Shown here piece by piece: positions 8,686 through 55,125 of a stretch of DNA of 64,000 nucleotides (positions within the stretch are counted from its first letter, which is position 1; each line of letters opens with the position of its first letter). The translations under genes and the position numbers were made by a program. Below the pieces are notes generated by a model. That model saw only the letters and a program-made list of their open reading frames with translations, had not been told where the DNA came from and searched no databases. The stretch is from Vulcanimicrobiota bacterium (GTDB lineage Bacteria; Vulcanimicrobiota; Xenobia; Xenobiales; JADMJV01): the NCBI GenBank assembly GCA_050250895.1, contig JBFWNU010000004.1, forward strand, positions 353,362-417,361. The letters run 5' to 3'.

Positions 8686-8770
8686 TGTTCATAAGCTTTA
8701 GCCGCTCCTGCCATCGAAAGCCGAGCAGAGCGAGAGGACCTGGTCGCGCCAGGAGGAAGCGGGAGCGACC

Positions 8771-10896: not shown

Positions 10897-12038
10897 GGGA
10901 CGCGGGGGCCACTCCTTCTAACCTCGTCGTAGATTCTTTCCAGCTTACGAGTCTGGGCCTCGAGGTCAAAGTTGGCCACGGCATGGTCGCGGGCCGCTCG
11001 ACTCATGGTTTGCCAGAGCCTGTCGTCGGCGAGCAGTCGCCGACCGAACTCGACGGCCCGCGGGACCGCGTCTTGAGGGAACAGAAAGCCAGTGCGCTCC
11101 TCGGACACCCCTTCGGGGATACCTCCGAGTCGGGTGGCCAAGACCGGCGTGCCGCAGCTTTGGGCCTCGATAAAGACCAGGCCGAAAGCCTCGACCGCTC
11201 CCGAGGGCATCGCCCGACTGGGACCGATCAGGGCTTTGGAGCGCGCCAGCATGGCCCGGATCTCGTCATCGGGCAGGACGCCCATGAAGTCGGCGTTGCA
11301 TCCCAGCGACTCGGCTAGCAGCGTCAGGGCGGGTCGTTCGGGACCATCGCCCACAATCTTCAACCGTAGATCGGCAAAGGTTTGCTGCAGCCGGGCCGCG
11401 ACCCTGATGGCCACATCGCACCCCTTATCGGGCACCAGCCGCCCCACAAAGGCCAGCCAGTTCTGTCTGGGCTCGCTCTCGGGCAGGGGCGCAAAGACGT
11501 CGGTGTCCACACCGATGTAGTGCGTCTCGAGCAAGGCCGGGGAGAAGCCCTTGCGGATGAGTTCGGTTCGCAGCGCCTCGGACACGCACAAAATCCGACA
11601 AATGGAGCCCGGAAGTCGCCATTTGTTGAGGGCATAGTAGCGACCGAGCCACCCCACTTCTTGGAGCAGAGAATGGCGAAAAGCGTCATAACCGTGATAG
11701 GTCACGACCAGGGGCAGGCCGAGAGCCCTGGCCAGGGGCAAGGCCAAAAGGCCATTGGGACCGAAGTGGGCGTGGATGATGGCCGGGTTGCGTCCTCTCA
11801 ACTCGGCCAGCAGGCGGTGGCTGGGTAGTCCCAACCCGAAGGCCAGAATCCCCAGCCACGATTCGTGCTCGCACAGCAACACTGATTCGGCCGTGAGCCA
11901 GTCTCTTTGCCCGCCCGGTCGCAGCCCCAGGAAAAGAGGCCGGTAGTCACGCAGCGCCTCTCCCTGTCTCTTGATAAACGCCTGGGAAAAGGGCAACAGT
12001 CTATCGGTGAAGATTATGGCGGTGGGTCGGGCGCTCAA
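10893..12038 (-). CDS. Glycosyltransferase family 4; start codon uncertain (TTG at 12038 proposed)
   Basis: C-terminal 380 aa of the 10893..12656 frame are a clean GT4 (IIHAHF ... AFVGRLVPDKG ... FGLVFIEAQSCGTPVL); the N-terminal ~200 codons are Arg/Pro-rich and lie antisense-overlapped with the GT1 gene; no in-frame ATG until deep in the domain; TTG at 12038 overlaps the GT1 stop as TTGA. Confidence 0.7.
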   Translation of the reverse strand: MSARPTAIIFTDRLLPFSQAFIKRQGEALRDYRPLFLGLRPGGQRDWLTAESVLLCEHESWLGILAFGLGLPSHRLLAELRGRNPAIIHAHFGPNGLLALPLARALGLPLVVTYHGYDAFRHSLLQEVGWLGRYYALNKWRLPGSICRILCVSEALRTELIRKGFSPALLETHYIGVDTDVFAPLPESEPRQNWLAFVGRLVPDKGCDVAIRVAARLQQTFADLRLKIVGDGPERPALTLLAESLGCNADFMGVLPDDEIRAMLARSKALIGPSRAMPSGAVEAFGLVFIEAQSCGTPVLATRLGGIPEGVSEERTGFLFPQDAVPRAVEFGRRLLADDRLWQTMSRAARDHAVANFDLEAQTRKLERIYDEVRRSGPRVP

Positions 12039-13270
12039 GGTTGCTCGAGTTGTACACCGGAGACCCCAGCTCCTGGATTCTGGTCGAGCAGGACCTGGCA
12101 GGTCAGGTCGGTGGCATTGGCCGCAACGGCGCCAGGACGGTCCTGGGCCAGGAGGCGGGCCAGCCTGGTTCGCATGCCCGACAGGCCGGTCGAACCCAAA
12201 TTCAATCCGGCGCCGAGAGCCTCGAGCCGGGCCGCGTTGTCGGGCTGGTCGTGGGCCATCGGGACCAGCAACTGTGGGATCCCGGCCGCCAGCGCCTGAG
12301 CCGCGGTGCCGACTCCGCCGTGGTGAATCACCACTCTGGCCCGAGCAAACAAGGCGCCAAAGGGGGCCGTGGCCACATGGAAAACATCGTCCTCGGGCGC
12401 CGTGGGAGGCAGGTGAGGCGATACCAACACCACTCGCAGGTTCAGACTGCGGCAAGTGGCCACCGCCTGCCGAAAGCTCTCTTGACCGTGCCTTTGCCCG
12501 GTGCCAAAGGTGACGACGGCCGGAGCGGGACCGGCCGCCAGAAATGCTTCGAGTTCGGACTGCAGCGATTCGTCGTCGCCCAACAGAAAGCCGGTCTGAA
12601 ACCCGGGCCTGGGCCAATCGGCGGCGGGGGCGGCGAACCACCGAGGAAACAACCACAGGTGAATGGCGCCGGCCTGCATCCAGGCGAGCACCTTGGGGGC
12701 CGGGGCCAGGCCTGCGCTCATCCGCACTTCACGGAGGGCGGGCTCTACCAGGCGGTCTATGTTGACTTCGTTGAGCCGGTAGAAGAGCCAGCGAATCCAA
12801 CGAGGCATGGGGGTCACCCACTCCCAACCGCAGATCAGGGGCGTGGCCTCGAGGCTGACGATGCCGGCCGGCGCAAACCAGAGGCAGAAACGGGGCCAAT
12901 CCAGCAACTCTTGCAGGATGCGTGTGGCCGGAAGGGCCAGATAGGTCGAGACCAACCTCCACTCCTGGGCCCGGGGCAGCGAAAGTCCCAGCTCTACGAT
13001 CGGCCGGGTCGCTGGCACCATCAAGCCTTGCAAGACCACTCCGAAAAACCGGCGCGGATGCCAAAAATCGGGGTTGGATAGGGCGGCATCGTAGAGTTCT
13101 CTGGAGAGCACCGAGGTAAAGTCCAGTCCGGCGGCTTCGGCCAGGTCCTGGTAGGGCTCGGGCCCGGCTAGAATCACCGTGTGCCCCCGACGGCATAGCT
13201 CGCCGCCCAGCCGAATGCACGGCCTGATGTCTCCGCCGGTTCCCAGGGCGACCAACAGAAAATTCACCAA
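12035..13270 (-). CDS. GT1-family glycosyltransferase (MGT/UDP-glycosyltransferase-like)
   Basis: 411 aa; N-terminal GTGGD, C-terminal nucleotide-sugar motif VVIHHGGVGT ... HDQPDNA typical of GT1 enzymes. Confidence 0.8.
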   Translation of the reverse strand: MVNFLLVALGTGGDIRPCIRLGGELCRRGHTVILAGPEPYQDLAEAAGLDFTSVLSRELYDAALSNPDFWHPRRFFGVVLQGLMVPATRPIVELGLSLPRAQEWRLVSTYLALPATRILQELLDWPRFCLWFAPAGIVSLEATPLICGWEWVTPMPRWIRWLFYRLNEVNIDRLVEPALREVRMSAGLAPAPKVLAWMQAGAIHLWLFPRWFAAPAADWPRPGFQTGFLLGDDESLQSELEAFLAAGPAPAVVTFGTGQRHGQESFRQAVATCRSLNLRVVLVSPHLPPTAPEDDVFHVATAPFGALFARARVVIHHGGVGTAAQALAAGIPQLLVPMAHDQPDNAARLEALGAGLNLGSTGLSGMRTRLARLLAQDRPGAVAANATDLTCQVLLDQNPGAGVSGVQLEQP

Positions 13271-13366: not shown

Positions 13367-14635
13367 GTGTTAGCAGTCACGCCTTTTGAAAAACTCTTCC
13401 TCTATTGCGACGAGGTCGCGGGCCCGACGGCCTTCGAGATCGGGCTCGAATTTACCGCTGACTTCGACCACCAGAAACTGACCGCGGCTCTCGACCGGGC
13501 CGTGACGCGCCACCCGATGCTCTCGGCCCGCATCGAAGAGCATCGCGGGCGGTTGGTCTGGGTGCCTCAGCCTGAATACCACGTTCCGCTCTTGCCGCCC
13601 GCTACCGGCAACCTCCTTTCGCCCTTGCACGGGGGCGGAGTGCGAGTTCGGCTTTCTGACCTGGGGCCGGGCACGCGTCTGCTCTTCGAGATTCATCACA
13701 GTTGCTGTGATGGCCGAGGGGCGTTCTTGTTTCTGGACGACTTTCTCCAGGACTACCACGAACTCTGCGGCGGCGCCGCCCGACGCCGCCCCAAAAGAGA
13801 TCTGTCGGTACTGGAAAGGAGGGGGCAGGTCGAGGTTTCGGAGACCAGCCTCGAACTTTCCCTGTGGCTGAGGCTGCGCCTAGCCTGGGACTTTCTGAGC
13901 ACTCGGCCCCAGGGCTTTGGCGATGTGAAGCGACCAGCTCGGTCGCACCGCCCGTTCTCTCAGCAGCTGTTTTCGCCAGCCCTGAGTTCGCTCATCGACA
14001 GCCGCCTGGCTGGCTCAGGGGCCAATCTTAACGACCTCGGTCTGGCCTTGCTGCTGCGGACGCTGGCCTCTACCTCGTCCTCCTCCCAGCCGCTGCGACT
14101 GCTGGTGCCGACCAGCCTGCGTCGCCTCTCTGACTTCAGGGCCGGGGCCAGCCACCGCACCAGCTTCGCCTTTCTCACCCGGGCCCCACACGATTGCCTC
14201 GGCGGCTTTGCCGACCTGCTCGAGTGGACCGTGGGCGAGACTCGCTTCATCAAAGCGGCCCGTCCCGACTACACCACCGTGTTGGGCGTGAATCTGCTCG
14301 AGCGATTGCGCCTGCTCCGTCGCTTCTTGAGCTGGCCCCAGGCCCGCAACACGGCCGTGCTCTCTTTCATGGACGATGTCACCCGACTCCTCTCGCTCAA
14401 GCGTTTTCCCAGTTCTGCCCAGGGTGTGGGCATTGGCGACCAGGTGTTGAGCGGAGTCTTCGGCGTGCCCCCCACCCGACCGGGCACGAGTCTCAGCTTT
14501 GGCCTGGGCCGCTTCCAGGGGCGCGTCAACGTCTGTCTGAAGGGGGAGCCCCAGGTGGTGTCCGAGCAACTCGAAGCCCAGCTCATGGCGGCCTATACCA
14601 AAGGTTGGCAGGCTTGGGCCGAGGGCGCTCTCTAG
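13367..14635 (+). CDS. Condensation-domain-like acyltransferase (HHxxxDG family; PapA5 / WS-DGAT-like)
   Basis: 422 aa; catalytic-type motif HHSCCDGRG about 110 aa from the N-terminus; convergent with the SDR gene and divergent from GT1; start codon appears to be GTG. Confidence 0.6.
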   Translation: MLAVTPFEKLFLYCDEVAGPTAFEIGLEFTADFDHQKLTAALDRAVTRHPMLSARIEEHRGRLVWVPQPEYHVPLLPPATGNLLSPLHGGGVRVRLSDLGPGTRLLFEIHHSCCDGRGAFLFLDDFLQDYHELCGGAARRRPKRDLSVLERRGQVEVSETSLELSLWLRLRLAWDFLSTRPQGFGDVKRPARSHRPFSQQLFSPALSSLIDSRLAGSGANLNDLGLALLLRTLASTSSSSQPLRLLVPTSLRRLSDFRAGASHRTSFAFLTRAPHDCLGGFADLLEWTVGETRFIKAARPDYTTVLGVNLLERLRLLRRFLSWPQARNTAVLSFMDDVTRLLSLKRFPSSAQGVGIGDQVLSGVFGVPPTRPGTSLSFGLGRFQGRVNVCLKGEPQVVSEQLEAQLMAAYTKGWQAWAEGAL

Positions 14636-15381
14636 AGCAGGCTGATACCGCCGTCCACCACCAGCGTCTGGCCCTGAATCAGGTCGGCCAGGGGGCTCGA
14701 CAGAAACAGGACACTGTCGGCCACATCGTCACAGGTCAGCTTCCGTCCGGCCGTGAGCAGGTGCTGGTCGACTGTTTCGAAGAGAGCCTCGGGCAAGGCT
14801 TTAGTCGATTGGGTTCGCACCAGCCCGGCCAGCACGACATTGAAATTGATCTGCGGAAACTCCAGAGCCAGGTGACGCGTCAGGCTCTCCAAAGCAGCTT
14901 TCGAAGCCCCGATCATGCCATAGTTCTCGATGGCTTTGCGAGCTCCGTGGCTCGACAGGCTCACCACCTTGGGTCGTCCCGAACCGGCTTGCATCCAGGG
15001 CAAGGCGGCCTGCACCAGACTCACCAGGGCCATGGCGTTGACGTTCATGGTGGTCTTGAACTGCTCCGGAGTGATCGAGCGCAGCGAGTGAAAACCGCCC
15101 CGGGCCACATTGCTCACCAGGATGTCCAGTCGGCCGAATCGTTGACCCACAAAGTCGAGCATGGCCTCAATGTCCTCGGCTTCGCCGATGTCGGCTTTGA
15201 CCACCACCGCGTCTCGGCCCAATTGCTGCACCTCTTCGGCCACCTGCTCGGCGGCCCTGGGCGAGGCCAGATAGTTGATGACCACGTCGGCCCCGGCCCG
15301 AGCCAGCTTGAGGGCGCAGGCCCTCCCGATGCCGCGCGAGGCTCCCGTGACCAGCGCCACCTTTCCGTCCAATTCGATCAT
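14632..15381 (-). CDS. Short-chain dehydrogenase/reductase (FabG-like)
   Basis: 249 aa; Rossmann motif VTGASRGIG near N-terminus; 4-bp overlap with PKS stop. Confidence 0.9.
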   Translation of the reverse strand: MIELDGKVALVTGASRGIGRACALKLARAGADVVINYLASPRAAEQVAEEVQQLGRDAVVVKADIGEAEDIEAMLDFVGQRFGRLDILVSNVARGGFHSLRSITPEQFKTTMNVNAMALVSLVQAALPWMQAGSGRPKVVSLSSHGARKAIENYGMIGASKAALESLTRHLALEFPQINFNVVLAGLVRTQSTKALPEALFETVDQHLLTAGRKLTCDDVADSVLFLSSPLADLIQGQTLVVDGGISLL

Positions 15382-18300
15382 GCGCCGATTCGGTTGGGGA
15401 CGCCGAGCCAGGCCAGCCGATAGTCATGGGCCCGCGCCATGAGCTGGCCATCGTCCCCCCAGAGATGAATTTCGAAGCGCTCCTCGCCTATCCATTGCAC
15501 CCTGACGACACAGCGCTCGCCCGGGCGGGTGAGGCGCCCCACCCACAACTCGCCGATAGTCGCTGGCACCGTGTGCCCTTCGCGCACGCTCTTCCAGGCC
15601 AAGATTCCCGCCGCATAGAGACATCCGTCCAGGATGGCCGAGGGCAGCCGCCACCCTACTGTAGAGCGGTGAGAGCCGGCCAGTTCCACCAAGGGTGGGG
15701 CCACCAGTTCGCCCCAGAGAGTCTCTCCCTCTATTTGATAGCGTCGCAGCGTTCGCAACGAGGGCCCGTGGTACATCTGACCCGAGTCGGAATAGGCGAC
15801 CGGCTCCCATTGGTCGGGAACCTCGGGGCAGGCCAGTGACTCGACCGGCATCTCGTTCACCAACTCTACCTCGAGCAAAGTTCGGCGCGCCTCTAACACC
15901 GTTCCGTCGCGGGCCAACTGGGCATAGAGCAGCCTCACCGTATTGTCGTCACGAGCCACTTCCACCTGGCGTGGACGCCCCTCGTGGAACTTCAGAAACC
16001 CTGCCGGTCGGACTCGCCTCAAGCCGATGGGGCCAGGACCTCGAGATTGCGCCTCGCAGGCCAACTCGAGGGCCACCACCAGGGGTAGTACCGGAACGTC
16101 TTCCACCCGATGGTCTCGCAAGAAGGCTTCCTGCTCGGGATCGAGCCATACCTGATTGGAGGTTCCCAGCAGGGGTCGGGCGGCCTGCTGCGTCTCGAAC
16201 AGCTCGGCGTGATAGAATCTGCGGTAATAGTGCTCATCGGTGATGAGCACCTCGGCTCTGGGGGCGCCGGCCTGCAACTCGGCGATGAGGTGAGCGACCC
16301 CCTCGGCCGCTGGCATGAAGTTCATGTTCACTAACTCGAGACCCAGCTGGCTCTCGCCTTTGACGGCCATTCCGACATCGCCCCAGGCGTGCCAATGAAA
16401 GGTCACCGCGCCGACCTCCGGCCGTTGCTGACGATAATAGGCCACTAGCTTGGCCATCATCTCGTTGGCGGCCGAATAGTCGGCGTGCCCGTTGGCCCCG
16501 AACCGACCACTGATCGAGCCGAAGGCGACAAAGAAGTCGAGCGGGTCTGCAGCCATCAGGCTCATCAAGTTGTGGGTTCCCAGGACCTTGGCTCCCAAGC
16601 ATTCCCCCACCTTTTGGTGGTCCTTCTGCTCGAACTTCGAATCGCGGGTGGCCCCGGCCCCATGCAGGACGCCGCGAATGGGTCCATCGGCCCGGATCGC
16701 CTGAAGAGTTTGGGCCAGCCGGTCCCGATCGCTCAAGTCGCAACTGTGATAGTGCGCTTCCAGGCCGGCTTCGTGGAGGGCCACCAGGGCCGCCTCGATC
16801 TCGAGGCCCTTCTCGACGGCTTCCCAGCTTTTGACCGGGTTGGCTGCTCCCTGAGAGCGAGCCGTATCCATCACTTCCAGCTTCAATCCACGGCGGTCCT
16901 GTAGCCAACGGGCTCGCCACTCGGGCGGATGCGAGGGACCGGGGGCCCGTCCGATGAGATGGAGCTTCAATCCGAAGCGGCCGGCCAGTTCGCGGGCGAC
17001 GTGGGCAGTGATGCCCCGGGCCCCGCCGGTGCAGACCCAGTTACCGCGCGGCAACACCGCCTGGCCGTCCCGGTCGTCCACTGGCTGGGGTTCGGCCGTC
17101 ACCAGGGCCCGTTGGCCGGCGATTTCACCGATCTCGAGCTCATAGTTGCGGTGGCAAAGCTCTCGTAGCACGCGCTGGCCAGCGTCTGAGGCACTGATAT
17201 CAGGGCCGCAGTCGATAACTTTCACGGTCAAATCGCGATGTCCGGCTACCCAATTCTCGATGCGCATCGACTTTAAAAGGCCGGCCAGAAATCCTCCGTC
17301 AGGACCCTCTATGGGCGTTCCAAAGCCGAAGCCGCCCCCGAGTCTGGTCACGGCCACCACGGTGGCCTCGTCCACCAGGCCGTCTCCCTTGACCCGCCGC
17401 AACCATTCCTGGCAGAGCCAGAACGGAGTCGTGATGCGGGCGGTGTAATGCTCTGGCCGCTCCAGTTCGCCCGGCACCCAGGCGGTGGTGATAAACAGGT
17501 GGGGTAGCGGCCCGAGCGCTTCGAGACCTCGCTTGAGTTCCGTCAAGGCCCGGTGGGTATCGAGGATATGGACCGGCCCCCTGAGGCGGCTCGCGAGTTC
17601 ACGACTCAAAGCGTTGTCTCCGATGATCAGCGAAGCTCCGCCAAGGCTGCGAGTGGGCGAGAGCGGGAGGGGACATTCGACCATCCTCATCAGGTAGCGC
17701 TGAGTCTGGTCGGGGGTCGAGCCGGGCAGGGTCCCGTGGCGCTCTTTGTAGCCGATCAGGTTGTAGAGATGGACTCCCGCTCCCTCGGCCAGGCCGCGAA
17801 GCTCTTCCAGGGTGGCCGGGTCGAGGCCGGCCTCGAGGTCTTTCCCAGGCCGCCTTTGCCAGGGAAAGACCTTGAGCGCATCGTGGCGCAGAGCCGCGCG
17901 GATGGCTTGGGATTGCGCCCGGCCACGTAGCCGAGCACTTTCATAGGCCTGCCCGCTGACGCGGGGCAGGAGCGGCGCCTCGGCCTCGGTCGGGGCCTCG
18001 GTCACCCCGATATGCTCGAGAATGTCTTTGAGGCTTCGGAGGTTGGCCAGCTCTTTGTCAGAGGTGTCTAGACCGAAGGCATCGCGCAGCTCGCCCAGCA
18101 ATTGGGTTCTTTTGATACTGTCGATGCCGAGGTCGGCCTCGAGTTCCCATTCCAGCTTGAGCGCGCTACGTGGATAGCCCGTCAGGTCGGCAACATGGTC
18201 GAGGAGAAAGGCTTGAGCGCGGGCGTCGATGGCCGTGGTGCGTGTCTTGCCGCTAAGGCTGTCTTCCCCCAGCACGCGCTCGAGGCGGGGCCGGGTCGCG

Positions 18301-21300
18301 TCGAAATGATCGATGCTTCCGAGCCCTCTCTGGGTGGTCGTCGAGCGCGCCTGGGGCAGCCGGTCGACGCATTCGAAGGCGGCTTCGAGGCGGGCCCACT
18401 GGAGGGCCCGCTGGCGACGCGGGTGGTCGACCGAAGTCACGATCACATTGCGCTCCTTCAAATTTTGGCGGGCCAGTTGAGTCAACACCTGTTTAGGGCC
18501 CACTTCGACGAGCAGGCCGACTCCGTCGTTCACGAGTTGATCCAGGAGCTGACCAAATCGGACCGGCTCGACCAGTTGCCGAACCAGATTCTGGCGGATG
18601 ACCTCGACCTGGGTAGCCGGCTGATTGGTCACGTTACTGTAAAACAGGATCGTGGGTGGACGCAGCTCGAGCCTGGCCAGCCGGGCTTCGAGGGCCGTCT
18701 GAGCCGATGCCACCAAAGGAGTGTGAAGGGCGCCCGGAACCTTGAGCCGGCGAGTGGGCATGCTGTCTTTTCTCAGCTCGCTCTCCAGGGCGGCCAGCTG
18801 ACTGTTAAGGCCGCCCACCACCGTCTGACCGGCGGCGTTATAATGGGTGAAATAAAGTCCTAGCTCGGCCACCAGAGGCTCGAGCCGTTGGGGAGGCGCG
18901 GCCACGGAAAGCAGACCTCCGTCGGGCGAGGCTGCTAGCAGAGCCTGAGCGCGGACCTGGGTCAGCTCCAGAGCGTCTTCGAAGGTCATGACCCCGGCCG
19001 CCACCAGGGCAGGAATCTCGCCAAAGCTGTGGCCACACACACAGTCGGGCCGATAGCCTTGCTCGTCGAGCACGGCGAAAGCGATCTGATCAGCGATCAA
19101 GACGGCCAACTGGGTGACCACCGGGTCGGCGTCAAGGCGCTCATCCGCTTGCCAGGCCAGGAGTCCAAAGCCAGGCAGGCCCATCTTCTCGAGGGCAGCG
19201 TCGGCCCGGCGCACCACGGCTGCCGCGGCCGCGGACCCGCTCACCAGGTCTCGCAGCATGCCTTGATACTGAGAGCCCTGACCCGAGAAAAGATAAGCGA
19301 TCCGCGGTCGAGCACGGCCGAGTTCGCAGTAGAAGATACCCTGCTCTTCGAGCAGGCGCCGGCCCTTGGCTTCGGCCAACTGGTCAGCTGCCAGAGCCAC
19401 ATTCTGGGCCAGGCGAGGCTGGTCGGGAGCCACGGCCACCAGGCGGACCGGGTCGGCCTGCGCCAGGCCCTGGCGACCCTCGCGAAGGTTGGTCGCCAGT
19501 TGGTTCGGGTCGTGGGCACTGTAGCGAGCCACCCGGGCGGTGACGGATGACCGGGGGCCGGCGCCCTCGAAGATGAGCTGGGCAGCCTGGCCGGTCTCGG
19601 CCAGGCCGGCCAGCACCACTCTCTCTTGCGGATGGCACAAGCTAGCTCTCAACAACGAGAGCATCCCCCCGGCCGCATGCAGAGCCCCGAATTGGGCGGC
19701 CAATGAGGGCAAGAGGGGCTTGCCGCAGACCCGCTCCAAAACCGGGGCCAACTCGGCCGAGGGGGCATCAGCCAGGGCAAGGCCCGGGTCAGACAAGGCA
19801 GGGCCGACCACCAATTCGAGGGCCGACTCGGGGGTGAGTCCGCTGGCGAGTTCTGCCGTGTGCAAAAGGCCATAGATTCGGTCCCCGTCCTGCTGGGCTC
19901 GGTCGAGGGTCTTGAGGATGACCACTCCGACCCCTTCGCCTGGCAACTGGGCGCTCAAACGACCTTTGAGGGCAAGACTCTCGAACCCCACCAGGTCCAT
20001 GGAGTGCTGGCCGGCCGCCACCACCACGGCTGAGCAATCGCCGCCCCGCAGCAGGTCACAACCCACCTTCAAGGCCGCCTCGGACGATGTCTCGCCCACA
20101 TCGAGAGCCAGGGCTCCACCGCGCCAATCGTGGGCTTTAGTCAATCGTGAAGCGAGAGAGCTACAGGTAAAGCCTCCCGTCTCGTCGAGCAGTGCCGAGT
20201 ATCGCTCGAAGAAAATCCGGTCGAACTGCTCGAGCAATCCGGGCTTCGAGAGGCCCAACTCAGCCAGCAGCCTGGCCACCTCACGGCGAATCTCGGCGTG
20301 GCGAAAGCCCACTTGCATCTGATTGCCGAAGTCCGAACAAAAACTCGCGCCCACCACCACGGCTGTCGAGTTTGCCTCGAGTGGGGAGCCCAGCTCTGCC
20401 AGGGCCTGATTGGTCGCATCCAACAGCATCAGCTGGACCGGATTGGCCCGCTTGACCTGCTTGGGAGGAATCTTGTGGCCGACGGCGTCGAACTCGAAGT
20501 TAGTGATGTAGCCACCGCGACGGGTGGGCGTATGCCAGGGCTGGAGCTGCTCGGCCAGGCCGGCGTCACTGGGCCAGCGACCGGCCGGCGGTTCGCCGAG
20601 TTGGGACTGGCCGCTGCCGAGCAACTCTTTCAACTCGCCCAGGTTGCGAGCGCCGGGGACGACGACGCCGCGCCCGACCACCGCCACCAGCGGCTCGTCG
20701 GCGGCCACCGGCTCGACCGGTCCGCCTGGCTCTTCGACCACCAGGTGAACGTTGAGACCGCCCACCCCAAAGGCGCTGACACCGGCTCGGCGAGTCTCTC
20801 CCTGACGGGGCGCAGGCCAATCGGACGGCTCTCGCTGGACCACGAAAGGTAGCCGCGACCAGTCCACTCCGGGGTTGAGCTGGTCGACGTTGATGGTGTG
20901 GGGAATGCCGCGGTGTCTCAAGGCCAGCACGACCTTCAACAAACTGGCCAGTCCGGCCGTCTCGAGCGTATGCCCCAAATTGGACTTGACACTGCCGATG
21001 GGTATCTGGCGTCCTTTCAGATGAGGCCCGAAAAAGGTCGACAAAGACTCGAGTTCGGTGGCGTCACCCAGCTGAGTGCTGGTGGCGTGGGCTTCGATGT
21101 ACTGGACGCTGGCCGCGTCGACTCCGGCGTAGCAACGTTGCAGCGCCTCGAGCTGTCCCTCGGCACGGGGGGCCCACAGACTGCGACCGCGACCATCCGA
21201 AGACAGACCGATCGAGCGGATCACCGCTTGCATCGAATCCCCGTCGCGGCGGGCCGCATCGGCCCGCTTGAGGACCATTGCCACCACTCCTTCGGAGCTG

Positions 21301-22088
21301 ATCAGGCCGTCGGCTTCGGCATCGAACGGGCGCGAGCCGGACGCGCTGCACGATTGGGCGTGGGAAAAGAGAATGAGGCTCTCCGTCTTGTTGTAGGAGG
21401 ACCCTCCGACGATGGCCAGGTCGATTTCGCCCCGGGTCAGAGCCAGGGCGGCCAGGGAGAGAGCCACCAACGACGAGGCACAGGCGGCGTCTACCACCAG
21501 CTGAGGGCCGGCCAACCCCAGTTGCCGGACCAGCAGGCCCGCGATCCATTGGGCCTCGAGACACGGTTTGCCTTCCCCGTCGCGGCGAGGCCGTCCGCGG
21601 CGTAGCTGGCCGGTCAGGGCTTGCATGGCGGCCTGACGCGTCTGGGTCGGCAAAGCGCGAAAATCGGGCAAGCACTCGAGCAACTCCGCCACCTGAGCGG
21701 CCAGGGTGGCTACCACCAGTTCTCCCCCCCGGGGCGTTCCTCCGGAGTGACCGGCATAGACACCGACTCGCTGGCCTTGCAGCCCGTCAGCATAGCCCGC
21801 CTCGGCCAGCGCTTCCAGAGCCACATCGCAAAAGATGCGGTGGCTCAAGTCATAGGAATCATCTCCCGAGCGGGCCTGGCAAGACTTGAGGCAGCCGCCG
21901 ATGCTGGAGTAAGTCTTTCCCACCTGACCGCGGGTCGAATCAAAGTAAAGTTCTCGGTCCAGTCGCTCGGGGGGCAACTCGCGAACCGCATCATGGCCGT
22001 TCCAGAGCAACTCCCAGAATTCGGCCGGGTTGTCCGAATCGGGCAGGCGGCAGCCGCACCCCAATATCGCGATAGGAGCGATCTTCAT
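15378..22088 (-). CDS. Type I polyketide synthase, single module: KS / KS-like / AT / ACP / KR / DH
   Basis: 2236 aa; KS DAACASS + HATST + GHT; AT GQGSQ + GHSFGE; ACP LGIDSI; KR TGGARGIT + YSAAN; C-terminal HRVEDVPVLP hot-dog motif; 4-bp overlaps with flanking genes. Confidence 0.9.
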   Translation of the reverse strand: MKIAPIAILGCGCRLPDSDNPAEFWELLWNGHDAVRELPPERLDRELYFDSTRGQVGKTYSSIGGCLKSCQARSGDDSYDLSHRIFCDVALEALAEAGYADGLQGQRVGVYAGHSGGTPRGGELVVATLAAQVAELLECLPDFRALPTQTRQAAMQALTGQLRRGRPRRDGEGKPCLEAQWIAGLLVRQLGLAGPQLVVDAACASSLVALSLAALALTRGEIDLAIVGGSSYNKTESLILFSHAQSCSASGSRPFDAEADGLISSEGVVAMVLKRADAARRDGDSMQAVIRSIGLSSDGRGRSLWAPRAEGQLEALQRCYAGVDAASVQYIEAHATSTQLGDATELESLSTFFGPHLKGRQIPIGSVKSNLGHTLETAGLASLLKVVLALRHRGIPHTINVDQLNPGVDWSRLPFVVQREPSDWPAPRQGETRRAGVSAFGVGGLNVHLVVEEPGGPVEPVAADEPLVAVVGRGVVVPGARNLGELKELLGSGQSQLGEPPAGRWPSDAGLAEQLQPWHTPTRRGGYITNFEFDAVGHKIPPKQVKRANPVQLMLLDATNQALAELGSPLEANSTAVVVGASFCSDFGNQMQVGFRHAEIRREVARLLAELGLSKPGLLEQFDRIFFERYSALLDETGGFTCSSLASRLTKAHDWRGGALALDVGETSSEAALKVGCDLLRGGDCSAVVVAAGQHSMDLVGFESLALKGRLSAQLPGEGVGVVILKTLDRAQQDGDRIYGLLHTAELASGLTPESALELVVGPALSDPGLALADAPSAELAPVLERVCGKPLLPSLAAQFGALHAAGGMLSLLRASLCHPQERVVLAGLAETGQAAQLIFEGAGPRSSVTARVARYSAHDPNQLATNLREGRQGLAQADPVRLVAVAPDQPRLAQNVALAADQLAEAKGRRLLEEQGIFYCELGRARPRIAYLFSGQGSQYQGMLRDLVSGSAAAAAVVRRADAALEKMGLPGFGLLAWQADERLDADPVVTQLAVLIADQIAFAVLDEQGYRPDCVCGHSFGEIPALVAAGVMTFEDALELTQVRAQALLAASPDGGLLSVAAPPQRLEPLVAELGLYFTHYNAAGQTVVGGLNSQLAALESELRKDSMPTRRLKVPGALHTPLVASAQTALEARLARLELRPPTILFYSNVTNQPATQVEVIRQNLVRQLVEPVRFGQLLDQLVNDGVGLLVEVGPKQVLTQLARQNLKERNVIVTSVDHPRRQRALQWARLEAAFECVDRLPQARSTTTQRGLGSIDHFDATRPRLERVLGEDSLSGKTRTTAIDARAQAFLLDHVADLTGYPRSALKLEWELEADLGIDSIKRTQLLGELRDAFGLDTSDKELANLRSLKDILEHIGVTEAPTEAEAPLLPRVSGQAYESARLRGRAQSQAIRAALRHDALKVFPWQRRPGKDLEAGLDPATLEELRGLAEGAGVHLYNLIGYKERHGTLPGSTPDQTQRYLMRMVECPLPLSPTRSLGGASLIIGDNALSRELASRLRGPVHILDTHRALTELKRGLEALGPLPHLFITTAWVPGELERPEHYTARITTPFWLCQEWLRRVKGDGLVDEATVVAVTRLGGGFGFGTPIEGPDGGFLAGLLKSMRIENWVAGHRDLTVKVIDCGPDISASDAGQRVLRELCHRNYELEIGEIAGQRALVTAEPQPVDDRDGQAVLPRGNWVCTGGARGITAHVARELAGRFGLKLHLIGRAPGPSHPPEWRARWLQDRRGLKLEVMDTARSQGAANPVKSWEAVEKGLEIEAALVALHEAGLEAHYHSCDLSDRDRLAQTLQAIRADGPIRGVLHGAGATRDSKFEQKDHQKVGECLGAKVLGTHNLMSLMAADPLDFFVAFGSISGRFGANGHADYSAANEMMAKLVAYYRQQRPEVGAVTFHWHAWGDVGMAVKGESQLGLELVNMNFMPAAEGVAHLIAELQAGAPRAEVLITDEHYYRRFYHAELFETQQAARPLLGTSNQVWLDPEQEAFLRDHRVEDVPVLPLVVALELACEAQSRGPGPIGLRRVRPAGFLKFHEGRPRQVEVARDDNTVRLLYAQLARDGTVLEARRTLLEVELVNEMPVESLACPEVPDQWEPVAYSDSGQMYHGPSLRTLRRYQIEGETLWGELVAPPLVELAGSHRSTVGWRLPSAILDGCLYAAGILAWKSVREGHTVPATIGELWVGRLTRPGERCVVRVQWIGEERFEIHLWGDDGQLMARAHDYRLAWLGVPNRIGA
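15381..16226 (-). other. PKS dehydratase-like hot-dog domain, approx. residues 1955-2236
   Basis: HRVEDVPVLP (HxxxDxxxxP variant of the DH HxxxGxxxxP motif) at ~1993-2002. Confidence 0.55.
16344..17651 (-). other. PKS ketoreductase (KR) domain, approx. residues 1480-1915
   Basis: NADPH-binding VCTGGARGIT (~1685-1694) and catalytic YSAAN (~1871). Confidence 0.75.
17994..18236 (-). other. PKS acyl carrier protein (ACP) domain, approx. residues 1285-1365
   Basis: Phosphopantetheine attachment motif ADLGIDSI (Ser ~1324); only one such motif found. Confidence 0.75.
18399..19301 (-). other. PKS acyltransferase (AT) domain, approx. residues 930-1230
   Basis: FSGQGSQ at residues ~934-940 and active-site GHSFGE at ~1019-1024. 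Confidence 0.8.
19854..20693 (-). other. PKS second KS-like segment lacking catalytic Cys (chain-length-factor-like), approx. residues 466-745
   Basis: KS-like N-terminal half (VAVVGRGVVVPG, NPVQLMLLDA, LDVGETSS in place of Cys motif, GEGVGVVILK) that then loses KS similarity. Confidence 0.5.
20733..22082 (-). other. PKS ketosynthase (KS) domain, approx. residues 3-452
   Basis: Active-site Cys in DAACASS (residue ~203), His in EAHATST and NLGHT. Confidence 0.8.
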
Positions 22089-49073: not shown

Positions 49074-50843
49074 ATGGATTTATTGGGCTTGGTAGAGCAA
49101 GCGGCCGATGGAGACGTGCTGCAGCTCGAGGGTGTCTATTCTTTGGCCGAGCCGCTGGTCTTGACGCGGGCAGTGAGCCTGGTGGGCCAGGCGGCCACCA
49201 TCGTGTCCGAGAGTCCTGACGTGGTGGTGCGGCTGGTGGGTCCCGGCCCTTTCAGTTTTCATGACATCCGTTTCGAATATCGCGGCCAAGAGCCGGCCCG
49301 GGTGGTCTGGCTCGAATCGGGTCGAGCCGACTTCGAGCGCTGTCGCTTCAGCGGCGGCCATTGGAATGACGAGCGTGGCTATGGCTGCGGTCTGCACCTG
49401 GGCGGCCAGAGCCAGGCCAGAGTGCGCCAATGCCAGTTCTTTGAAAACGATGTGGGGGTGCTGGTCGACCACCAGGCTCGGCCTTTACTCGAGGGTTGCC
49501 GGTTCACCGATAATCGTCTCGACGGTTTGCGTTTTCGTGGCTATTCGGGCGGTCGGGCGGTGCAGAACGAATGTCGAGGCAACGGCTGGTCGGGTATTTC
49601 GGTGGCCGGCGAGGCGACCCCCGAGCTGGTCAGCAACTTCTGCTCCGAGAACGGGAGCAGCGGTATCCTCTATCGCGAGCGAGGCAGCGGCATCGGTTCG
49701 TCCAACGAGTGTTCGCACAACGCCCACCACGGCATCAGCTTGAGCGAATACTGCCGCCCCTTGCTCAAAGCCAACCAGTGCGAAGAGAACCAGCTCTGCG
49801 GCATCGACCTGGGGGATCAGTCGCGCGGCGTGTTGCAATCGAATCTTTGTTGCGGCAACGGCGTGCACGGCATGCAGGTGCGCGATGAGGCCGATCCCGT
49901 CCTGGAAGACAACGAGTGCATGGAGAACGCCAGCTCGGGGCTGGCCATTTTCGGAGCCTCGCGAGCCGTGTGCCGGCGCAACGTGTTGACCCAGAACGCC
50001 TGCTACGGCCTGCAAGTGAGCCAGGACGCCTCGCCCGTGCTCGTCGAGAACCACGCCGTGGGTAATCGTCTGTCGGGGTTCGGCTTCTTTGGCCAGGCGG
50101 GCGGCCTGGGGGCCGCCAACGAGTGCAGCGAAAACCACGGCTACGGGGTGCAACTGTCGGGCACCGCAGCCCCCATCCTGGGCGATCAGCTCTGCACTCA
50201 AAACCAGCGCGGGGGCCTCCTGGCAGCCGAAGAGAGCCGTCCCCTCGTGCGGGGCGGCCAGTTCAGCAAGAACGAAAAGCACGGCCTGGTGGTCAACGAC
50301 CGCTCCCGCCCCCTGTTGCACGGAGCCAAAGCCGCCAGCAATGCCGAAGACGGCGTGGTCTTCGTGGGCCGAGCCGGGGGCGAGGCGCTGGCGGTCGAGG
50401 CCAGCGAGAACGGCCGCCACGGAATGTCCATCGGCCCCAAGACCTCACCCCTGCTCGAAGGCTGCAACTGCAACCAGAACCAGGCAGCCGATACCAGCAA
50501 CCAATCGGGCAAGGCCCGCACAGCCTCGCGGGGCGGCGAACACGAACCACTGCCCGAGGGCTTCGAGGTGGCCATCGAAAGCGGCGAATCGCTGCGTCTG
50601 CCGTTCGAACCCAAGGGAGTGGAAAAGTTGATTCTCGAGGCTCTACTAAAGCACGGTCGCTTGAGCGAGGCATCCCTTGCCAAGGTGGCCCGCACCCGCC
50701 GCATCGGGGGAGCCATGGAGAACTTGCTCGAGCGCCTCAATCAGGCCGGGCTGCGCTATATTCGGCGCGACGGCGAGGGGCCCGAGGGCAACGTCTACGC
50801 GCTCAGCCGCGACACCAACCAATCAGGGAGACAAGCATGCTAG
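49074..50843 (+). CDS. Cytoplasmic right-handed parallel beta-helix repeat protein with C-terminal helical domain
   Basis: 589 aa; no signal peptide; more than 12 tandem ~22-residue repeats with a recurring N.C..N...G pattern (NECRGNGWSGISV, NFCSENGSSGIL, NECSHNAHHGISL, NQCEENQLCGIDL, NLCCGNGVHGMQV, NECMENASSGLAI ...); last ~100 residues non-repetitive and helical; start could be TTG ~49083. Confidence 0.7.
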   Translation: MDLLGLVEQAADGDVLQLEGVYSLAEPLVLTRAVSLVGQAATIVSESPDVVVRLVGPGPFSFHDIRFEYRGQEPARVVWLESGRADFERCRFSGGHWNDERGYGCGLHLGGQSQARVRQCQFFENDVGVLVDHQARPLLEGCRFTDNRLDGLRFRGYSGGRAVQNECRGNGWSGISVAGEATPELVSNFCSENGSSGILYRERGSGIGSSNECSHNAHHGISLSEYCRPLLKANQCEENQLCGIDLGDQSRGVLQSNLCCGNGVHGMQVRDEADPVLEDNECMENASSGLAIFGASRAVCRRNVLTQNACYGLQVSQDASPVLVENHAVGNRLSGFGFFGQAGGLGAANECSENHGYGVQLSGTAAPILGDQLCTQNQRGGLLAAEESRPLVRGGQFSKNEKHGLVVNDRSRPLLHGAKAASNAEDGVVFVGRAGGEALAVEASENGRHGMSIGPKTSPLLEGCNCNQNQAADTSNQSGKARTASRGGEHEPLPEGFEVAIESGESLRLPFEPKGVEKLILEALLKHGRLSEASLAKVARTRRIGGAMENLLERLNQAGLRYIRRDGEGPEGNVYALSRDTNQSGRQAC

Positions 50844-52141
50844 CCAGTTTAAGCCGCGACACGGCCACTTCGATCATCAACGCGCTGCGTTCGGGAACCG
50901 TCCCTTTTGACGGGCTCGAGCACTATGCGGTGGGCCTCGAGCGCCAGATGGAGGTGCTGCGCGAGCAGCGCGAGTACGTGGCCGGTGGTCACTCGGCCTA
51001 TAAGTGCATTCGGGGCGCTTACGGGTCGGGCAAGACCTTTCTCTCGAGCCTGGCCGCGGCCGAAGCTGCCGACGCCAAGTTTCTGACCAGTAAAGTGGTC
51101 ATCTCGGCCGCCGATACGCCGCTCCATAAGCTCAAAGAAGTCTATCGCCGCTTCTGCCAGAACCTTTCTCTGGCCGACCGCCGAGGGGGCGCCCTGCAGA
51201 CCCTGGTCGACCGCTGGCTCTATCGCCTCGAGGACCAGGTCATCGAGGTCGATGGAGTGGCTGAGGACGACCCCGACTTCGCCGAGGTGGTGGCCCGCAA
51301 GGTCGACATGAGCCTGGTGCGCATCGGAGAACGGGCGGGCCGCCTGGCCGTCACCCTCAAAGCCTATCACAAAGCCAAGTACGACAGTCGCTTCTCGGAC
51401 GCACGGGGCTTGCTCGATTGGGTCTCGGGCGAACCCAAGGTGGGGGCCGACGTCAAGCGCCTGGCCTCGGTGACCGGCCAGATCGACAACACCGACGCCC
51501 TGGTCTTTCTGCGCGGTTGGCTGGAACTGGCGGAGGCGGCCGGCTACGCCGGGGTGTTGCTGGTGCTCGACGAAGTCGAGACCATCCTGCGCCTGCGCCG
51601 GCCCGAGCGGCTCAAATCGCTCGAAGTGTTGCGCCAGTTGATCGACGCCGTCGAGAATCAAGAACTGCCGGGGTTGCACCTGCTGATCACCGGCACCCCC
51701 GACTTCTTCGAAAGTTCCCAGGGGGTCCCGTCGCTGGTGCCCCTGCACGAGCGCATCCGCCAGACCCACCGCGACGGCGAGCCCGAGAACTTTCGCCAAC
51801 CCCAGATCACGTTGCCCACCCTCGACGCCGAGCGTCTGCGCCAGGTGGCCACGCGGGTGCGGGCCATCTATCCGGCCGAACATGGCGAGCGGTTGAGCAA
51901 GCGAGTACCCGACAGCTATGTGTTGCAACTGGTGGACCAGATGACGGCCGGCTTCGGTGGTCGCATCGAGGTGTTGCCGCGCTTGTTCCTGCGCGAATTC
52001 GTGCACATCCTCGACCTGGTCGACCAGCACTCAGACTACGATCCGGCTCAAGCCTATCGCTTTGATGTGGCCGGACTGAGCGAACTCAGGCCCGAAGAGG
52101 AAGAGGCCATTCAAGCGGCCGGGCGCGAGGTTCTCATCTAG
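50837..52141 (+). CDS. P-loop NTPase (AAA-like ATP-binding protein; possibly BrxC/BrxD-type DUF2791 fold)
   Basis: Frame 50123..52141 trimmed to ATG 50837, preceded by GGGAGA and overlapping the upstream stop as ATGCTAG; Walker A GAYGSGKTFL, Walker B LLVLDEVE; C-terminal helical region. Confidence 0.8.
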   Translation: MLASLSRDTATSIINALRSGTVPFDGLEHYAVGLERQMEVLREQREYVAGGHSAYKCIRGAYGSGKTFLSSLAAAEAADAKFLTSKVVISAADTPLHKLKEVYRRFCQNLSLADRRGGALQTLVDRWLYRLEDQVIEVDGVAEDDPDFAEVVARKVDMSLVRIGERAGRLAVTLKAYHKAKYDSRFSDARGLLDWVSGEPKVGADVKRLASVTGQIDNTDALVFLRGWLELAEAAGYAGVLLVLDEVETILRLRRPERLKSLEVLRQLIDAVENQELPGLHLLITGTPDFFESSQGVPSLVPLHERIRQTHRDGEPENFRQPQITLPTLDAERLRQVATRVRAIYPAEHGERLSKRVPDSYVLQLVDQMTAGFGGRIEVLPRLFLREFVHILDLVDQHSDYDPAQAYRFDVAGLSELRPEEEEAIQAAGREVLI

Positions 52142-52153: not shown

Positions 52154-54103
52154 TTAGAACTGCTGCCAGAGCAGCACGCGGCTCTTCTCGGCCGGGTCGA
52201 AGACCTGATTGAGGTCGAGATTGATCAAGTAGAACTCTTTGCCGTTCTTGATGGTGGGCTTGAGCAGCGAGTCGAGATAGGCTTCGACCTTCATGTCATC
52301 GACCTTGACGGCCGGCTGAAAAGTGTGAGTCGAACTCGAAGAGGTCTTGGTGGTCTTGGACGAGAGCCCGAACCAGGAACTCTCCTTCTTCTTGTATTCG
52401 GTGGTTACCGTGTATTCCACCGGCGCGCCGGCCGAGGCCTGGGCCACTGCGGCCCAGTTGGCAACTTCGGCCAGCACCGTCTCGCGAGAAACGTTATTGC
52501 CGCGATAATAGTTGACATAGACCGTCTTGTCTTCAATAGTGAAGGGGTACTTGTCGAGCTGGAAATTGGCCGCATCTTCAACTGGGATGGCCGAGGCATC
52601 GGTATACATGTTGCCTCGCGAGAAAGCGCCTTGAATAGCCACCGAGAAGCGCTCTTCACCGGTCTCGGTGGCGGGCATTCGATGGCCTGACACCGCCAGC
52701 CCGGCCACCACCGAGTCGGCCAGCTTGGCCTTGTCGGCGGCGCTGATGATGTTGGTGGTGGTGGTGTCTTTATCGCCCCAGCCGAGGAACCGGTCGTCGT
52801 CTTCATCCTCTTTGCTGGTGGTATCGGGCAGCGTGCTCTTGGTGACATCGGGCACGCCGACCGCAAAACTCACCGAGATGGGCGTCTTGACCAGGGTGAC
52901 GTTGTCGAGGCGCAACTTTCCTTTCCCTTTGGGGCCGTTGGCCACGGCCGCTCCCACCACCGTGATGTCCTTGGCCCACAGGTCGCCTTCGGAATAGACC
53001 AGTCCGTTAAAGAAGTTGCCACTCTTGCTCAGGCCGTGAAGGGTGATATCGCCTTTGGAGACCAGCGCCACCACATCGGTGGCCGAAATCTCGGCGCCCT
53101 CTTTGATCGACACTTCACCGAGCGAGAAAATCGCGCCGTTGCCGTAGACCTTGCCGGTCACGTCGACATCGCCCCGCACATACAGCAGGCCACCGTTGAG
53201 GTGAATGTTGCCATTGACCCTGAGGTCGCCCAGGGCCTCGGTGAAGAAGTCGACCTCTAAATTGGTAAGGGTCGGCGACCCATCGAGGATCTGATCGTTG
53301 CCTTTGATCTCGTCAAGCTTGGCAAAGATGTTGTCCACATCCAGGTCGGGCATGGTCTGCTCACCCGAGTGCTCGCGCACCTCGCCGGCCACTTTGACCG
53401 AGGTATCGAGGTCGATGCTTCCTACTGCCATGACGTCGCCCATCACGGTCGAGGTTGGCCCGATAGAAACGGCCTTGTCCCCGGCAAAGTTACTGGCCAC
53501 ATGGGCCATATCCAAATCCGCCGGGTCGAGGGTGGTGGCTTTGCCGGTGTCGGCAAAAGCCTGGGTAGAAGCCACTCCTGCAACCAGCAGCCCGCCCGAC
53601 GAGGTCAGGGGTCCGGTCGAAGCCAGAGCGTTGGGATAAGGAGGGATGTAGTAAATGGCTTCCATCTGGTAGCGGGCGTTCTTGCACTTGCCCACGGCCA
53701 CCAGGTGCACGGCGCTGTCGGGAATCTGCCGGCCGTTGGCCCCCTCGACCGAGGTCGGCTCTTCGAAATTATTGGTCGAGAAGGGCAACTTCAGATCGGA
53801 GGCCTGCTTCTTGCTGAAGGTCAGCCAACCATCGGCCTCGTCAGGAGCGAAGCTGGATGGGATGTGAATGGTCTGGTCATCAGCCCGGGCCTTGCCGAAC
53901 GTCTGGTCCATCCAGATGCGTCCCAGCGCCGTGGCCACCGCCGACTCGGCCAGATTGCGGGCTTCGCGCTGGTCCACCACCGTGTTGCTGAAATTGAGGT
54001 GGAAGAAGGAAACGGCCACCACGGTAAACAGCGCCAGGGTAATGATGGTAACCAGCAGTAGAACAGAACCGATTGTGAGACCGCGTGCTCCCCTGCGAAC
54101 CAT
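52154..54103 (-). CDS. Large surface/secreted beta-helical protein with pseudopilin-like N-terminal hydrophobic segment
   Basis: 649 aa; N-terminus MVRRGARGLTIGSVLLLVTIITLALFTVVAVSF resembling minor-pseudopilin leaders; central Gly/Asn/Val-rich repeats (NGNIHLNGGLLYVRGDVDVTGKVYGNGAIFSLGEV ...). Confidence 0.65.
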   Translation of the reverse strand: MVRRGARGLTIGSVLLLVTIITLALFTVVAVSFFHLNFSNTVVDQREARNLAESAVATALGRIWMDQTFGKARADDQTIHIPSSFAPDEADGWLTFSKKQASDLKLPFSTNNFEEPTSVEGANGRQIPDSAVHLVAVGKCKNARYQMEAIYYIPPYPNALASTGPLTSSGGLLVAGVASTQAFADTGKATTLDPADLDMAHVASNFAGDKAVSIGPTSTVMGDVMAVGSIDLDTSVKVAGEVREHSGEQTMPDLDVDNIFAKLDEIKGNDQILDGSPTLTNLEVDFFTEALGDLRVNGNIHLNGGLLYVRGDVDVTGKVYGNGAIFSLGEVSIKEGAEISATDVVALVSKGDITLHGLSKSGNFFNGLVYSEGDLWAKDITVVGAAVANGPKGKGKLRLDNVTLVKTPISVSFAVGVPDVTKSTLPDTTSKEDEDDDRFLGWGDKDTTTTNIISAADKAKLADSVVAGLAVSGHRMPATETGEERFSVAIQGAFSRGNMYTDASAIPVEDAANFQLDKYPFTIEDKTVYVNYYRGNNVSRETVLAEVANWAAVAQASAGAPVEYTVTTEYKKKESSWFGLSSKTTKTSSSSTHTFQPAVKVDDMKVEAYLDSLLKPTIKNGKEFYLINLDLNQVFDPAEKSRVLLWQQF

Positions 54104-54249
54104 ACACCAAAGTATATCACGATCGACCAGCGCTGGACCAGTTCATCTAAAATTAACATCCCCCAACACTTTTCCAAGGGATGCTCCGGAGGCACCCGGT
54201 AGACTGAAACCATGGCAGGAGAGTTTGCGCTTATTGTGGGCGGCCGGCG

Positions 54250-55125
54250 ATGAATGCGGTCAGAACCCATCGCCCGACCGCCGGGCCCACTCTCCCGGCC
54301 GCGCGCCCGCGCCCGGCCGGGCCTGCGCTCAGCGGCACCGCTGACACAGGGCTCAAGGCGCAGCGCCTCTCTGAGCTGCGCGACCAGAAACCGACCACCC
54401 CGGCGGGCCAGAACCCCACTCTCGCCAGCCAGGCCGAAAGGGCTAGGGCAGGCCTGGGCCAAGCCTTCGAGCTAAAGAAGCCGGTCACGCTCAAGAATGG
54501 AGTCACCGTGGTCAAAAGCGCCGACCTCAGCGACGGCTCGGGCCTATATGACCTGAATGTGGGCGGCCACAAAGTGGGGGTCCGTTTCGACCAGGGAATC
54601 GACGCAGGCACAAAGCTGCCGCAATTGGCCGACTACCTCGAGCAGACACCCGAACACTTGCGCAAAGAGCTTGGTTTTATCAACTTTCAGAACGGGGCCA
54701 ATCCCAAGGACGCTGAAATCGCCAAGAAGTTTGGAGTCGAAGAGTTTCAGACCTGGGCTACCGCCGATGACCACGCCATCAACGTCTACCACGGCGGAAA
54801 ATTCTTCGGTCAACGCGAGTTCGACCACGAGCTGGGCCATCTGGTGGGCGCCCGTCGCAGCGGCCACGACGAACTGGTCGACTGGGTCAATCTGCGCCAC
54901 GACCCCCACAACACACCGGTTGGTTGGGGGGCCCGCAAAGCCTACGACCATAAAGAGGTTTCTGACTACGGAAAGCTGTCGCTCGGCGAGGACTTCGCCG
55001 AGGGCTATGCCGACTACATGCAGGCTCGCCGTCAGGGCCCCGAAGCCTGGCAGGCGTTCGGACAGAAGTTTCCCAGCCGGACGGCCCTGCTCGAGCGCAT
55101 CGTGACCAACGGAGACACCCGCTGA
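54250..55125 (+). CDS. Hypothetical protein with HExxH motif (possible metallopeptidase/effector)
   Basis: 291 aa; low-complexity Pro/Ala/Arg-rich N-terminus, then globular region with FDHELGHLV; start uncertain. Confidence 0.45.
   Translation: MNAVRTHRPTAGPTLPAARPRPAGPALSGTADTGLKAQRLSELRDQKPTTPAGQNPTLASQAERARAGLGQAFELKKPVTLKNGVTVVKSADLSDGSGLYDLNVGGHKVGVRFDQGIDAGTKLPQLADYLEQTPEHLRKELGFINFQNGANPKDAEIAKKFGVEEFQTWATADDHAINVYHGGKFFGQREFDHELGHLVGARRSGHDELVDWVNLRHDPHNTPVGWGARKAYDHKEVSDYGKLSLGEDFAEGYADYMQARRQGPEAWQAFGQKFPSRTALLERIVTNGDTR

Follow-up and report, generated by a model that had tools for sequence, protein, structure and literature searches.

A probable type IV cap pilin with a large beta-solenoid, encoded apart from pilus genes in a Vulcanimicrobiota genome

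A gene for a modular protein of 649 residues

We analysed a stretch of 64,000 nucleotides, here called the window, from a genome deposited as Vulcanimicrobiota bacterium (assembly GCA_050250895.1, contig JBFWNU010000004.1, forward-strand positions 353,362 to 417,361), and concentrated on one gene at window positions 52154-54103. The open reading frame (ORF) list and its translation place this gene on the minus strand, with an ATG start and a product of 649 residues that begins MVRRGARGLTIGSVLLLVTIITLALFTVVAVSFF. The product is 100% identical to AB7S38_27195, an NCBI protein from a metagenome-assembled genome (MAG) labelled 'Vulcanimicrobiota bacterium' (Eremiobacterota), and we refer to it by that name. 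An initial annotation, made from the sequence alone, had given the ORF and its N-terminus exactly as found here, and no strand.

The 649-residue ORF is a real gene. No in-frame start codon occurs earlier than the ATG, and the GC content at third codon positions (0.78) is typical of real genes in the window, whose overall GC content is 62%. An orthologue with 86% identity is present in another MAG, and the ratio of nonsynonymous to synonymous substitution rates (dN/dS) between the two is 0.10, which indicates purifying selection. A promoter and terminator scan at the gene gave nothing informative. When the sequence was read by eye, a TATACT hexamer resembling a −10 element was seen to end about 8 nucleotides 5' of the ATG (within 54104-54125), and no obvious Shine-Dalgarno sequence was seen ahead of the ATG; the mRNA may be leaderless or carry only a very short 5' leader.

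The gene and its parts, all on the minus strand, are as follows.

52154..54103 (−): whole gene, a probable ComZ/PilX-like modular minor pilin of 649 residues; the stop codon (52154-52156) is included
54080..54103 (−): putative leader peptide, residues 1-8, MVRRGARG, a short basic peptide with Gly at −1 as its last residue (from family alignment columns)
53909..54079 (−): predicted alpha-1 helix, residues 9-65, consisting of the hydrophobic alpha-1N (residues 9-34) and an amphipathic part (AlphaFold helix 11-65 in both models)
53633..53908 (−): predicted pilin head, residues 66-157, an antiparallel beta-sheet that lies against the helix
52814..53632 (−): predicted beta-solenoid, residues 158-430, with a fold like that of ice-binding proteins
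52289..52813 (−): variable C-terminal alpha/beta domain, residues 431-605, with Lys/Ser/Thr-rich linkers (from the AlphaFold model, conservation and comparison with a paralogue; the analysis assigned it to no fold or family)
52157..52288 (−): conserved C-terminal tail, residues 606-649, with the terminal strand RVLLWQQF (39% identity to the paralogue; contains W646)

A conserved leader without Glu5

The N-terminal segment reads MVRRGARG↓LTIGSVLLLVTIITLALFTVVAVSFF, where the arrow marks a putative processing site. What the initial annotation described as charged residues followed by a hydrophobic segment is a basic leader of 8 residues and a hydrophobic stretch of 26 (residues 9-34), the sole such segment in the protein. 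The Kyte-Doolittle hydropathy of 19-residue windows reaches its maximum of 2.76 at residues 13-31, and all other windows score at most 1.6.

Conservation around the junction was examined in an alignment of 115 sequences. Of 114 relatives, 110 have Gly at residue 8 (position −1) and 73 have Arg at residue 7 (−2). On the other side of the junction, Leu occupies +3 in 95 relatives, and +5 is Thr in 72 and Ser in 15, with Ser in AB7S38_27195 itself and Glu in 0 of 115. Further along the helix, A48, A52 and E53, which form an A48..A52-E53 motif, are nearly invariant. Judged from these alignment columns, the conserved Arg-Gly junction and the non-acidic residue at +5 are those of a class III leader of GspK/PilX type, in agreement with the initial annotation, which had proposed such a leader lacking Glu at +5. 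The leader is also like that of GspK/XcpX, which we take to be of the form G↓VALITVLL. Prepilin peptidase probably cleaves the protein after Gly8.

Predicted fold

The AlphaFold model of the full protein (mean predicted local distance difference test score, pLDDT, 78.6; predicted template-modelling score, pTM, 0.64) shows, in order, a helix at residues 11-65, a small antiparallel sheet at 78-152, a beta-solenoid at about 158-430, an alpha/beta domain at 446-630, and a last strand at 642-648. The N-terminal domain (residues 1-157) modelled separately gave a pLDDT of 85.7. The predicted structure thus contains both the hallmark of the pilin fold, an alpha-1 helix of about 50 residues lying on an antiparallel beta-sheet, and a large beta-solenoid, triangular and with the fold of ice-binding proteins. 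When the model was compared with the PDB by Foldseek, Thermus thermophilus ComZ (6QVI) was the top match, with E = 3.7e-7 across 521 columns, and ice-binding proteins came next.

The last strand may belong to the pilin domain. More residues were aligned to GspK with the full model than with residues 1-157 (99 versus 86), and the same was true for PilA of Streptococcus sanguinis (98 versus 88). Among 84 sequences, at least 90% keep W646. Because the tail is conserved where the domain preceding it is not, and because more residues align in the full model, we infer that the C-terminal strand returns to the pilin sheet, which would make the solenoid an insertion.

The initial annotation had described the region behind the hydrophobic segment as Gly/Asn/Val-rich repeats. 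Gly and Val are indeed abundant in the solenoid (residues 158-430; Gly 12%, Val 11%, Leu 10%, Asp 9%), together with Leu and Asp, whereas Asn is not enriched. No tandem repeats were found at the DNA level under the solenoid; its repeats are structural coils, not sequence repeats.

A family of hypothetical proteins

A phmmer search of 1.84 billion cluster representatives gave 975 matches at E < 1e-3, 500 of them at E < 1e-30; the family size of about 975 counts representatives at 50% identity. Conservation spans residues 1 to about 420 and a short C-terminal stretch. The named members come almost all from MAGs of Eremiobacterota, Vulcanimicrobiota or Xenobiia, and every one is annotated as 'hypothetical protein'; the few that carry other taxon labels may reflect binning errors. 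A second homology search with an 84-sequence alignment added no new members, and a profile search of genome contigs with a closer alignment gave 2 loci.

All family members score below the Pfam gathering thresholds. For AB7S38_27195 itself, the Pfam models T2SSK (PF03934), PilX_N (PF14341) and N_methyl (PF07963) gave no match at E ≤ 10, and its matches in Pfam and NCBIfam are all to solenoid models below threshold (FapA, Bactofilin, YdcK). PilX_N was matched below threshold in 10 of 84 relatives, with a best E value of 2.1e-5. The other recurrent sub-threshold matches among relatives, to Bactofilin, FapA, DUF7305 and DUF2572, all fall within the solenoid, and those to DUF7305 and DUF2572 were set aside for this reason and for their scores below threshold. 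A PG_binding_4 match at residues 572-623 (E = 0.16) was rejected as noise.

Relatives lie beside pilus-assembly genes

A T2SSF platform gene and two prepilin genes are found next to the family gene in 8 of the 10 independent contexts (loci L001, L002, L003, L004, L008, L010, L012 and L013). The platform protein is of the PilC/GspF type and has about 330-390 residues, and the prepilins have about 112-150 and about 185-212 residues. Between most of the cluster loci, the corresponding neighbours are homologous. Most of the prepilins carry canonical motifs, with Phe or Met after the Gly and Glu at +5 (G↓F/M-x-x-x-E), such as KG↓FSFIEVVV and RG↓MTLIELLV; two of them reach the Pfam gathering score of N_methyl, and one has a weak T2SSI match.

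A kinase gene accompanies each of these clusters. Seven loci have a gene for a Ser/Thr kinase, and L010 has one for a histidine kinase instead; this suggests that kinase signalling is coupled to the filament module. The kinase genes lie at the following positions.

L001 12002-13288: Ser/Thr kinase
L002 11939-13216: Ser/Thr kinase
L003 11858-13177: Ser/Thr kinase
L004 13004-14596: Ser/Thr kinase
L008 about 11891-13087: Ser/Thr kinase
L012 9584-10879: Ser/Thr kinase
L013 1935-3260: Ser/Thr kinase
L010 9885-11645: HisKA kinase

The Ser/Thr kinase has a hydrophobic, signal-like N-terminus. In the Xenobiales locus L004 all cluster genes are co-oriented in an operon-like manner. The family gene is opposite in strand to the T2SSF, prepilin and kinase genes in L001-L003, L008, L010, L012 and L013, and in L013 it converges with the kinase gene, with an overlap of about 30 nucleotides.

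The exceptions to this context are the window together with the orthologue's locus, L005, which has the same non-pilus surroundings, and L011, where a kinase gene and a gene for a J-like prepilin lie 6-8 kb from the family gene.

One of the clusters belongs to the same genome as AB7S38_27195. The family member AB7S38_39800 (P0262, 536 residues), which shares its locus-tag prefix, was found in the sequence cluster of representative P0022, and it is by this cluster membership that the pilus cluster and our gene were linked to the same genome. Its locus, L013, holds genes for T2SSF, a 139-residue prepilin (3892-4311), a 212-residue prepilin (3257-3895; N_methyl) and a Pkinase protein alongside the family gene, and derives from sequencing run SRR27751815, as does a contig that carries AB7S38_27195. 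A T2SSF profile search for a platform gene of the same MAG gave 94 matches, none tagged AB7S38. The two family members are 36% identical over residues 25-450 and 39% identical over the last 44 residues, and the C-terminal domain of AB7S38_27195 is longer by about 90 residues (roughly 155 versus 65). Two family members also occur in some other MAGs. AB7S38_27195 is the second and longer of the two paralogues, and its gene lies apart from the pilus cluster.

Genes around AB7S38_27195 in the window

The nearest neighbours of the gene are the following.

49074-50843 (+): 589-residue right-handed beta-helix, NosD-like protein, convergent with AB7S38_27195
about 50850-52141 (+): BrxC/BrxD-like ATPase (PF10923, E = 3e-118), following the NosD-like gene and convergent with AB7S38_27195
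54250-55125 (+): 291-residue protein, divergent from AB7S38_27195, with a HELGH motif (HExxH, zinc-metalloprotease-like) and no Pfam match

The pair of NosD-like and BrxC/BrxD-like genes is also present at L005, where a gene for a 292-residue protein (3216-4094) occupies the same position beside the orthologue as the 291-residue gene in the window. No further BREX-type genes were seen near the BrxC/BrxD-like ATPase gene. The flanks also hold genes for a BamB-like beta-propeller and for GNAT/FemAB-like, YdjC, GT2 and DUF2079 proteins.

Two larger groups of genes lie farther away.

370-13270: exopolysaccharide (EPS) locus
370-2886: Wza-like exporter (Poly_export and SLBB) for polysaccharide export, within the EPS locus
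15378-22088 (−): type I polyketide synthase of 2236 residues (KS-AT-ACP-KR-DH)
14632-15381: short-chain dehydrogenase, after the polyketide synthase

The remaining genes of the EPS locus encode a Wzy-type polymerase/ligase, GT1, GH10, GNVR (Wzz-like), a sulfotransferase, a flippase and a GT28-like transferase. A diderm envelope would be in keeping with the Wza-like exporter.

A six-frame scan of the window for prepilin motifs returned only the N-terminus of AB7S38_27195 itself, and a tblastn search of the window with pilus-cluster proteins from related loci gave no match.

Discussion

We consider it probable that AB7S38_27195 is a cap pilin of the GspK/PilX/ComZ class, that is, the terminal subunit of a type IV filament, which carries a large beta-solenoid. 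We favour a place at the pilus tip because the leader is conserved, the model matches ComZ and GspK, relatives lie beside T2SSF and prepilin genes, and a cluster of this kind is present in the same MAG. The initial annotation had suggested a pilus-tip protein encoded away from its machinery, and the model and the gene contexts of the relatives and of the paralogue bear this out. It had also reported no pilus or secretion genes nearby, which holds for type IV pilus and type II secretion system (T2SS) genes across the 64 kb, where the Wza-like polysaccharide exporter is present. As grounds for abandoning the idea it had named a plain Sec signal together with a genome devoid of type II/IV machinery; this combination was not found, the leader proved to be conserved, and the MAG has its T2SSF/prepilin cluster.

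In the T2SS and in type IVa pili, assembly is primed by a complex of the I/J/K (or V/W/X) minor pilins at the tip, with the member that lacks Glu5 on top. By analogy, AB7S38_27195 would insert into the inner membrane by its N-terminal hydrophobic helix, would probably be cut after Gly8 by prepilin peptidase, and would join a tip complex with two canonical minor pilins, one I-like (about 130 residues) and one J-like (about 210 residues). This complex would prime filament assembly on the PilC/GspF-type platform. Because Glu5 is absent, no subunit would need to sit above the protein, and it would stay at the tip, where the rigid solenoid of ice-binding fold and the extra C-terminal domain could be displayed as a plug or a ligand-binding head. 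The copy in the window would then be an alternative tip for machinery encoded elsewhere in the same genome. We infer both the incorporation at the tip and the sharing of machinery between the paralogues. The sole cultured member of the phylum is a diderm that moves by type IV pili (PMC9758169).

Several results weigh against this assignment. No type IV pilus or T2SS gene was found near AB7S38_27195 by Pfam scans of the 64 kb (41 ORFs, including its own), and an assembly ATPase, a prepilin peptidase, a secretin and a major pilin were not seen in any examined locus. Scans of the protein with Pfam and NCBIfam gave no significant match to any pilin family, and searches of all PDB sequences with profiles built from 19 and 84 sequences missed both ComZ (6QVI, E ≤ 10) and GspK. 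The global template-modelling (TM) scores between the model and ComZ are low (0.22-0.26), which indicates that the domain orientations differ. Glu5 is missing, as it is from ComZ and GspK, so that motif-based tools would not call AB7S38_27195 a peptidase substrate; likewise, ComZ is not predicted to be a PilD substrate by PilFind (PMC6561018).

The local gene neighbourhood would suit a signal-anchored or Sec-secreted beta-helix surface protein (an adhesin, polysaccharide-binding or lyase-like protein, as in tapirins or in passengers of two-partner secretion (TPS) and autotransporter systems), which would act alone in the envelope, never enter a filament, and resemble pilins only in its N-terminal transmembrane helix. 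We regard this as unlikely. A plain anchor leaves unexplained the near-invariant Arg-Gly before the hydrophobic segment, the 55-residue helix with its A..AE motif and the conserved C-terminal strand, and the 8 of 10 contexts beside prepilin and T2SSF genes. A membrane-anchored polymer-binding protein, the other option of the initial annotation, explains the data less well than a protein at the pilus tip.

If AB7S38_27195 is a cap pilin, its ligand might be DNA, with the protein acting as a receptor for natural transformation on a competence-pilus tip, as a functional counterpart of ComZ. The closest solved structure is ComZ, which binds DNA and is needed for transformation (PMC6561018), and one subfamily of the cyanobacterial solenoid PilX proteins is tied to competence (bioRxiv 10.64898/2026.02.12.705559). 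However, the two DNA-binding lysines of ComZ cannot be mapped on AB7S38_27195, as the two proteins lack sequence homology, and the protein is acidic, with a net charge of about −24, which argues against a DNA receptor. Nor were comEA, comEC or dprA seen in the window or the clusters. A second cyanobacterial solenoid-PilX subfamily functions in motility and EPS and not in DNA uptake (bioRxiv 10.64898/2026.02.12.705559), and therefore the architecture does not fix the ligand. A role as DNA receptor thus seems to us quite improbable. That the solenoid acts as a cell-anchored ice-binding or antifreeze module is highly improbable, since the similarity is at the fold level only, with no match to the Pfam ice-binding family (DUF3494/IBP-1) in the protein or 84 relatives, and the solenoid of a thermophile's protein, ComZ, shares these structural neighbours and plays no part in ice binding (PMC6561018).

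A cap pilin at the tip of a shared filament remains our preferred assignment. It would give a functional and structural placement to a large family known only as 'hypothetical protein' and lacking a Pfam model, and would extend the ComZ/solenoid-PilX type of cap from Deinococcota and Cyanobacteria to Eremiobacterota. One genome can hold both a cap within a pilus cluster and a diverged cap encoded as an orphan, which suggests that pilus tips are exchangeable, and these proteins offer targets for the study of adhesion, motility or DNA uptake in a poorly known phylum. As a bolder speculation, which we hold to be distinctly unlikely as a whole, the conserved set of a short T2SSF platform paralogue, I-like and J-like prepilins, solenoid cap and Ser/Thr or histidine kinase might be a dedicated, undescribed type IV filament module of Eremiobacterota, in which tip engagement is coupled to the cluster kinase and the orphan long caps are interchangeable heads, for sensing or adhesion, by which the same filament is redirected, for example to the cell's own exopolysaccharide or to ice.

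Comparison with known systems

In ComZ of T. thermophilus HB27 (6QVI), a solenoid that resembles ice-binding proteins interrupts a GspK-like pilin domain ahead of its last strand, and the protein has been argued to lie at the pilus tip (PMC6561018). No sequence similarity between it and AB7S38_27195 was detectable by profile searches. The two also differ in that AB7S38_27195 continues beyond the solenoid with a further domain of about 175 residues, in the orientation of the domains in the model (TM 0.22-0.26), and in genomic location, since ComZ is encoded within the pilA1-pilA4 locus whereas the copy in the window is an orphan. In GspK (3CI0) the insertion, between strands 3 and 4, is alpha-helical, and there is no solenoid (PMC6561018).

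All cyanobacterial PilX proteins are reported to share the solenoid architecture, with several paralogues per genome (bioRxiv 10.64898/2026.02.12.705559). As we propose for AB7S38_27195, these proteins (PilX-Com and PilX-EPS/HpsA) are terminal minor pilins without Glu5 that carry an ice-binding-like solenoid before the last strand; their paralogues are not always near partner pilins, and some have additional undefined domains (same preprint). They belong to another phylum, and the likeness is one of description, not of sequence or model comparison. Only its genomic surroundings would tie the window copy to EPS. Cyanobacterial pilin loci also hold proteins with Ser/Thr kinase domains (bioRxiv 10.64898/2026.02.12.705559), whereas the kinase associated with the present family is a separate, conserved neighbour gene.

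GspK and PilX of type IVa pili are set apart by the T2SSK and PilX_N models, neither of which matches AB7S38_27195. The modular pilins of S. sanguinis (PilB with vWA, PilC with a lectin) and the tapirins of Caldicellulosiruptor differ from AB7S38_27195 both in the modules grafted on and in the positions of these modules. Tapirins, which are associated with type IV pili, are not pilins themselves.

The architecture is thus already known from Thermus and cyanobacteria, and what is new here is the phylum and a sequence family without a curated model. The features particular to AB7S38_27195 are its extra C-terminal domain and its orphan location.
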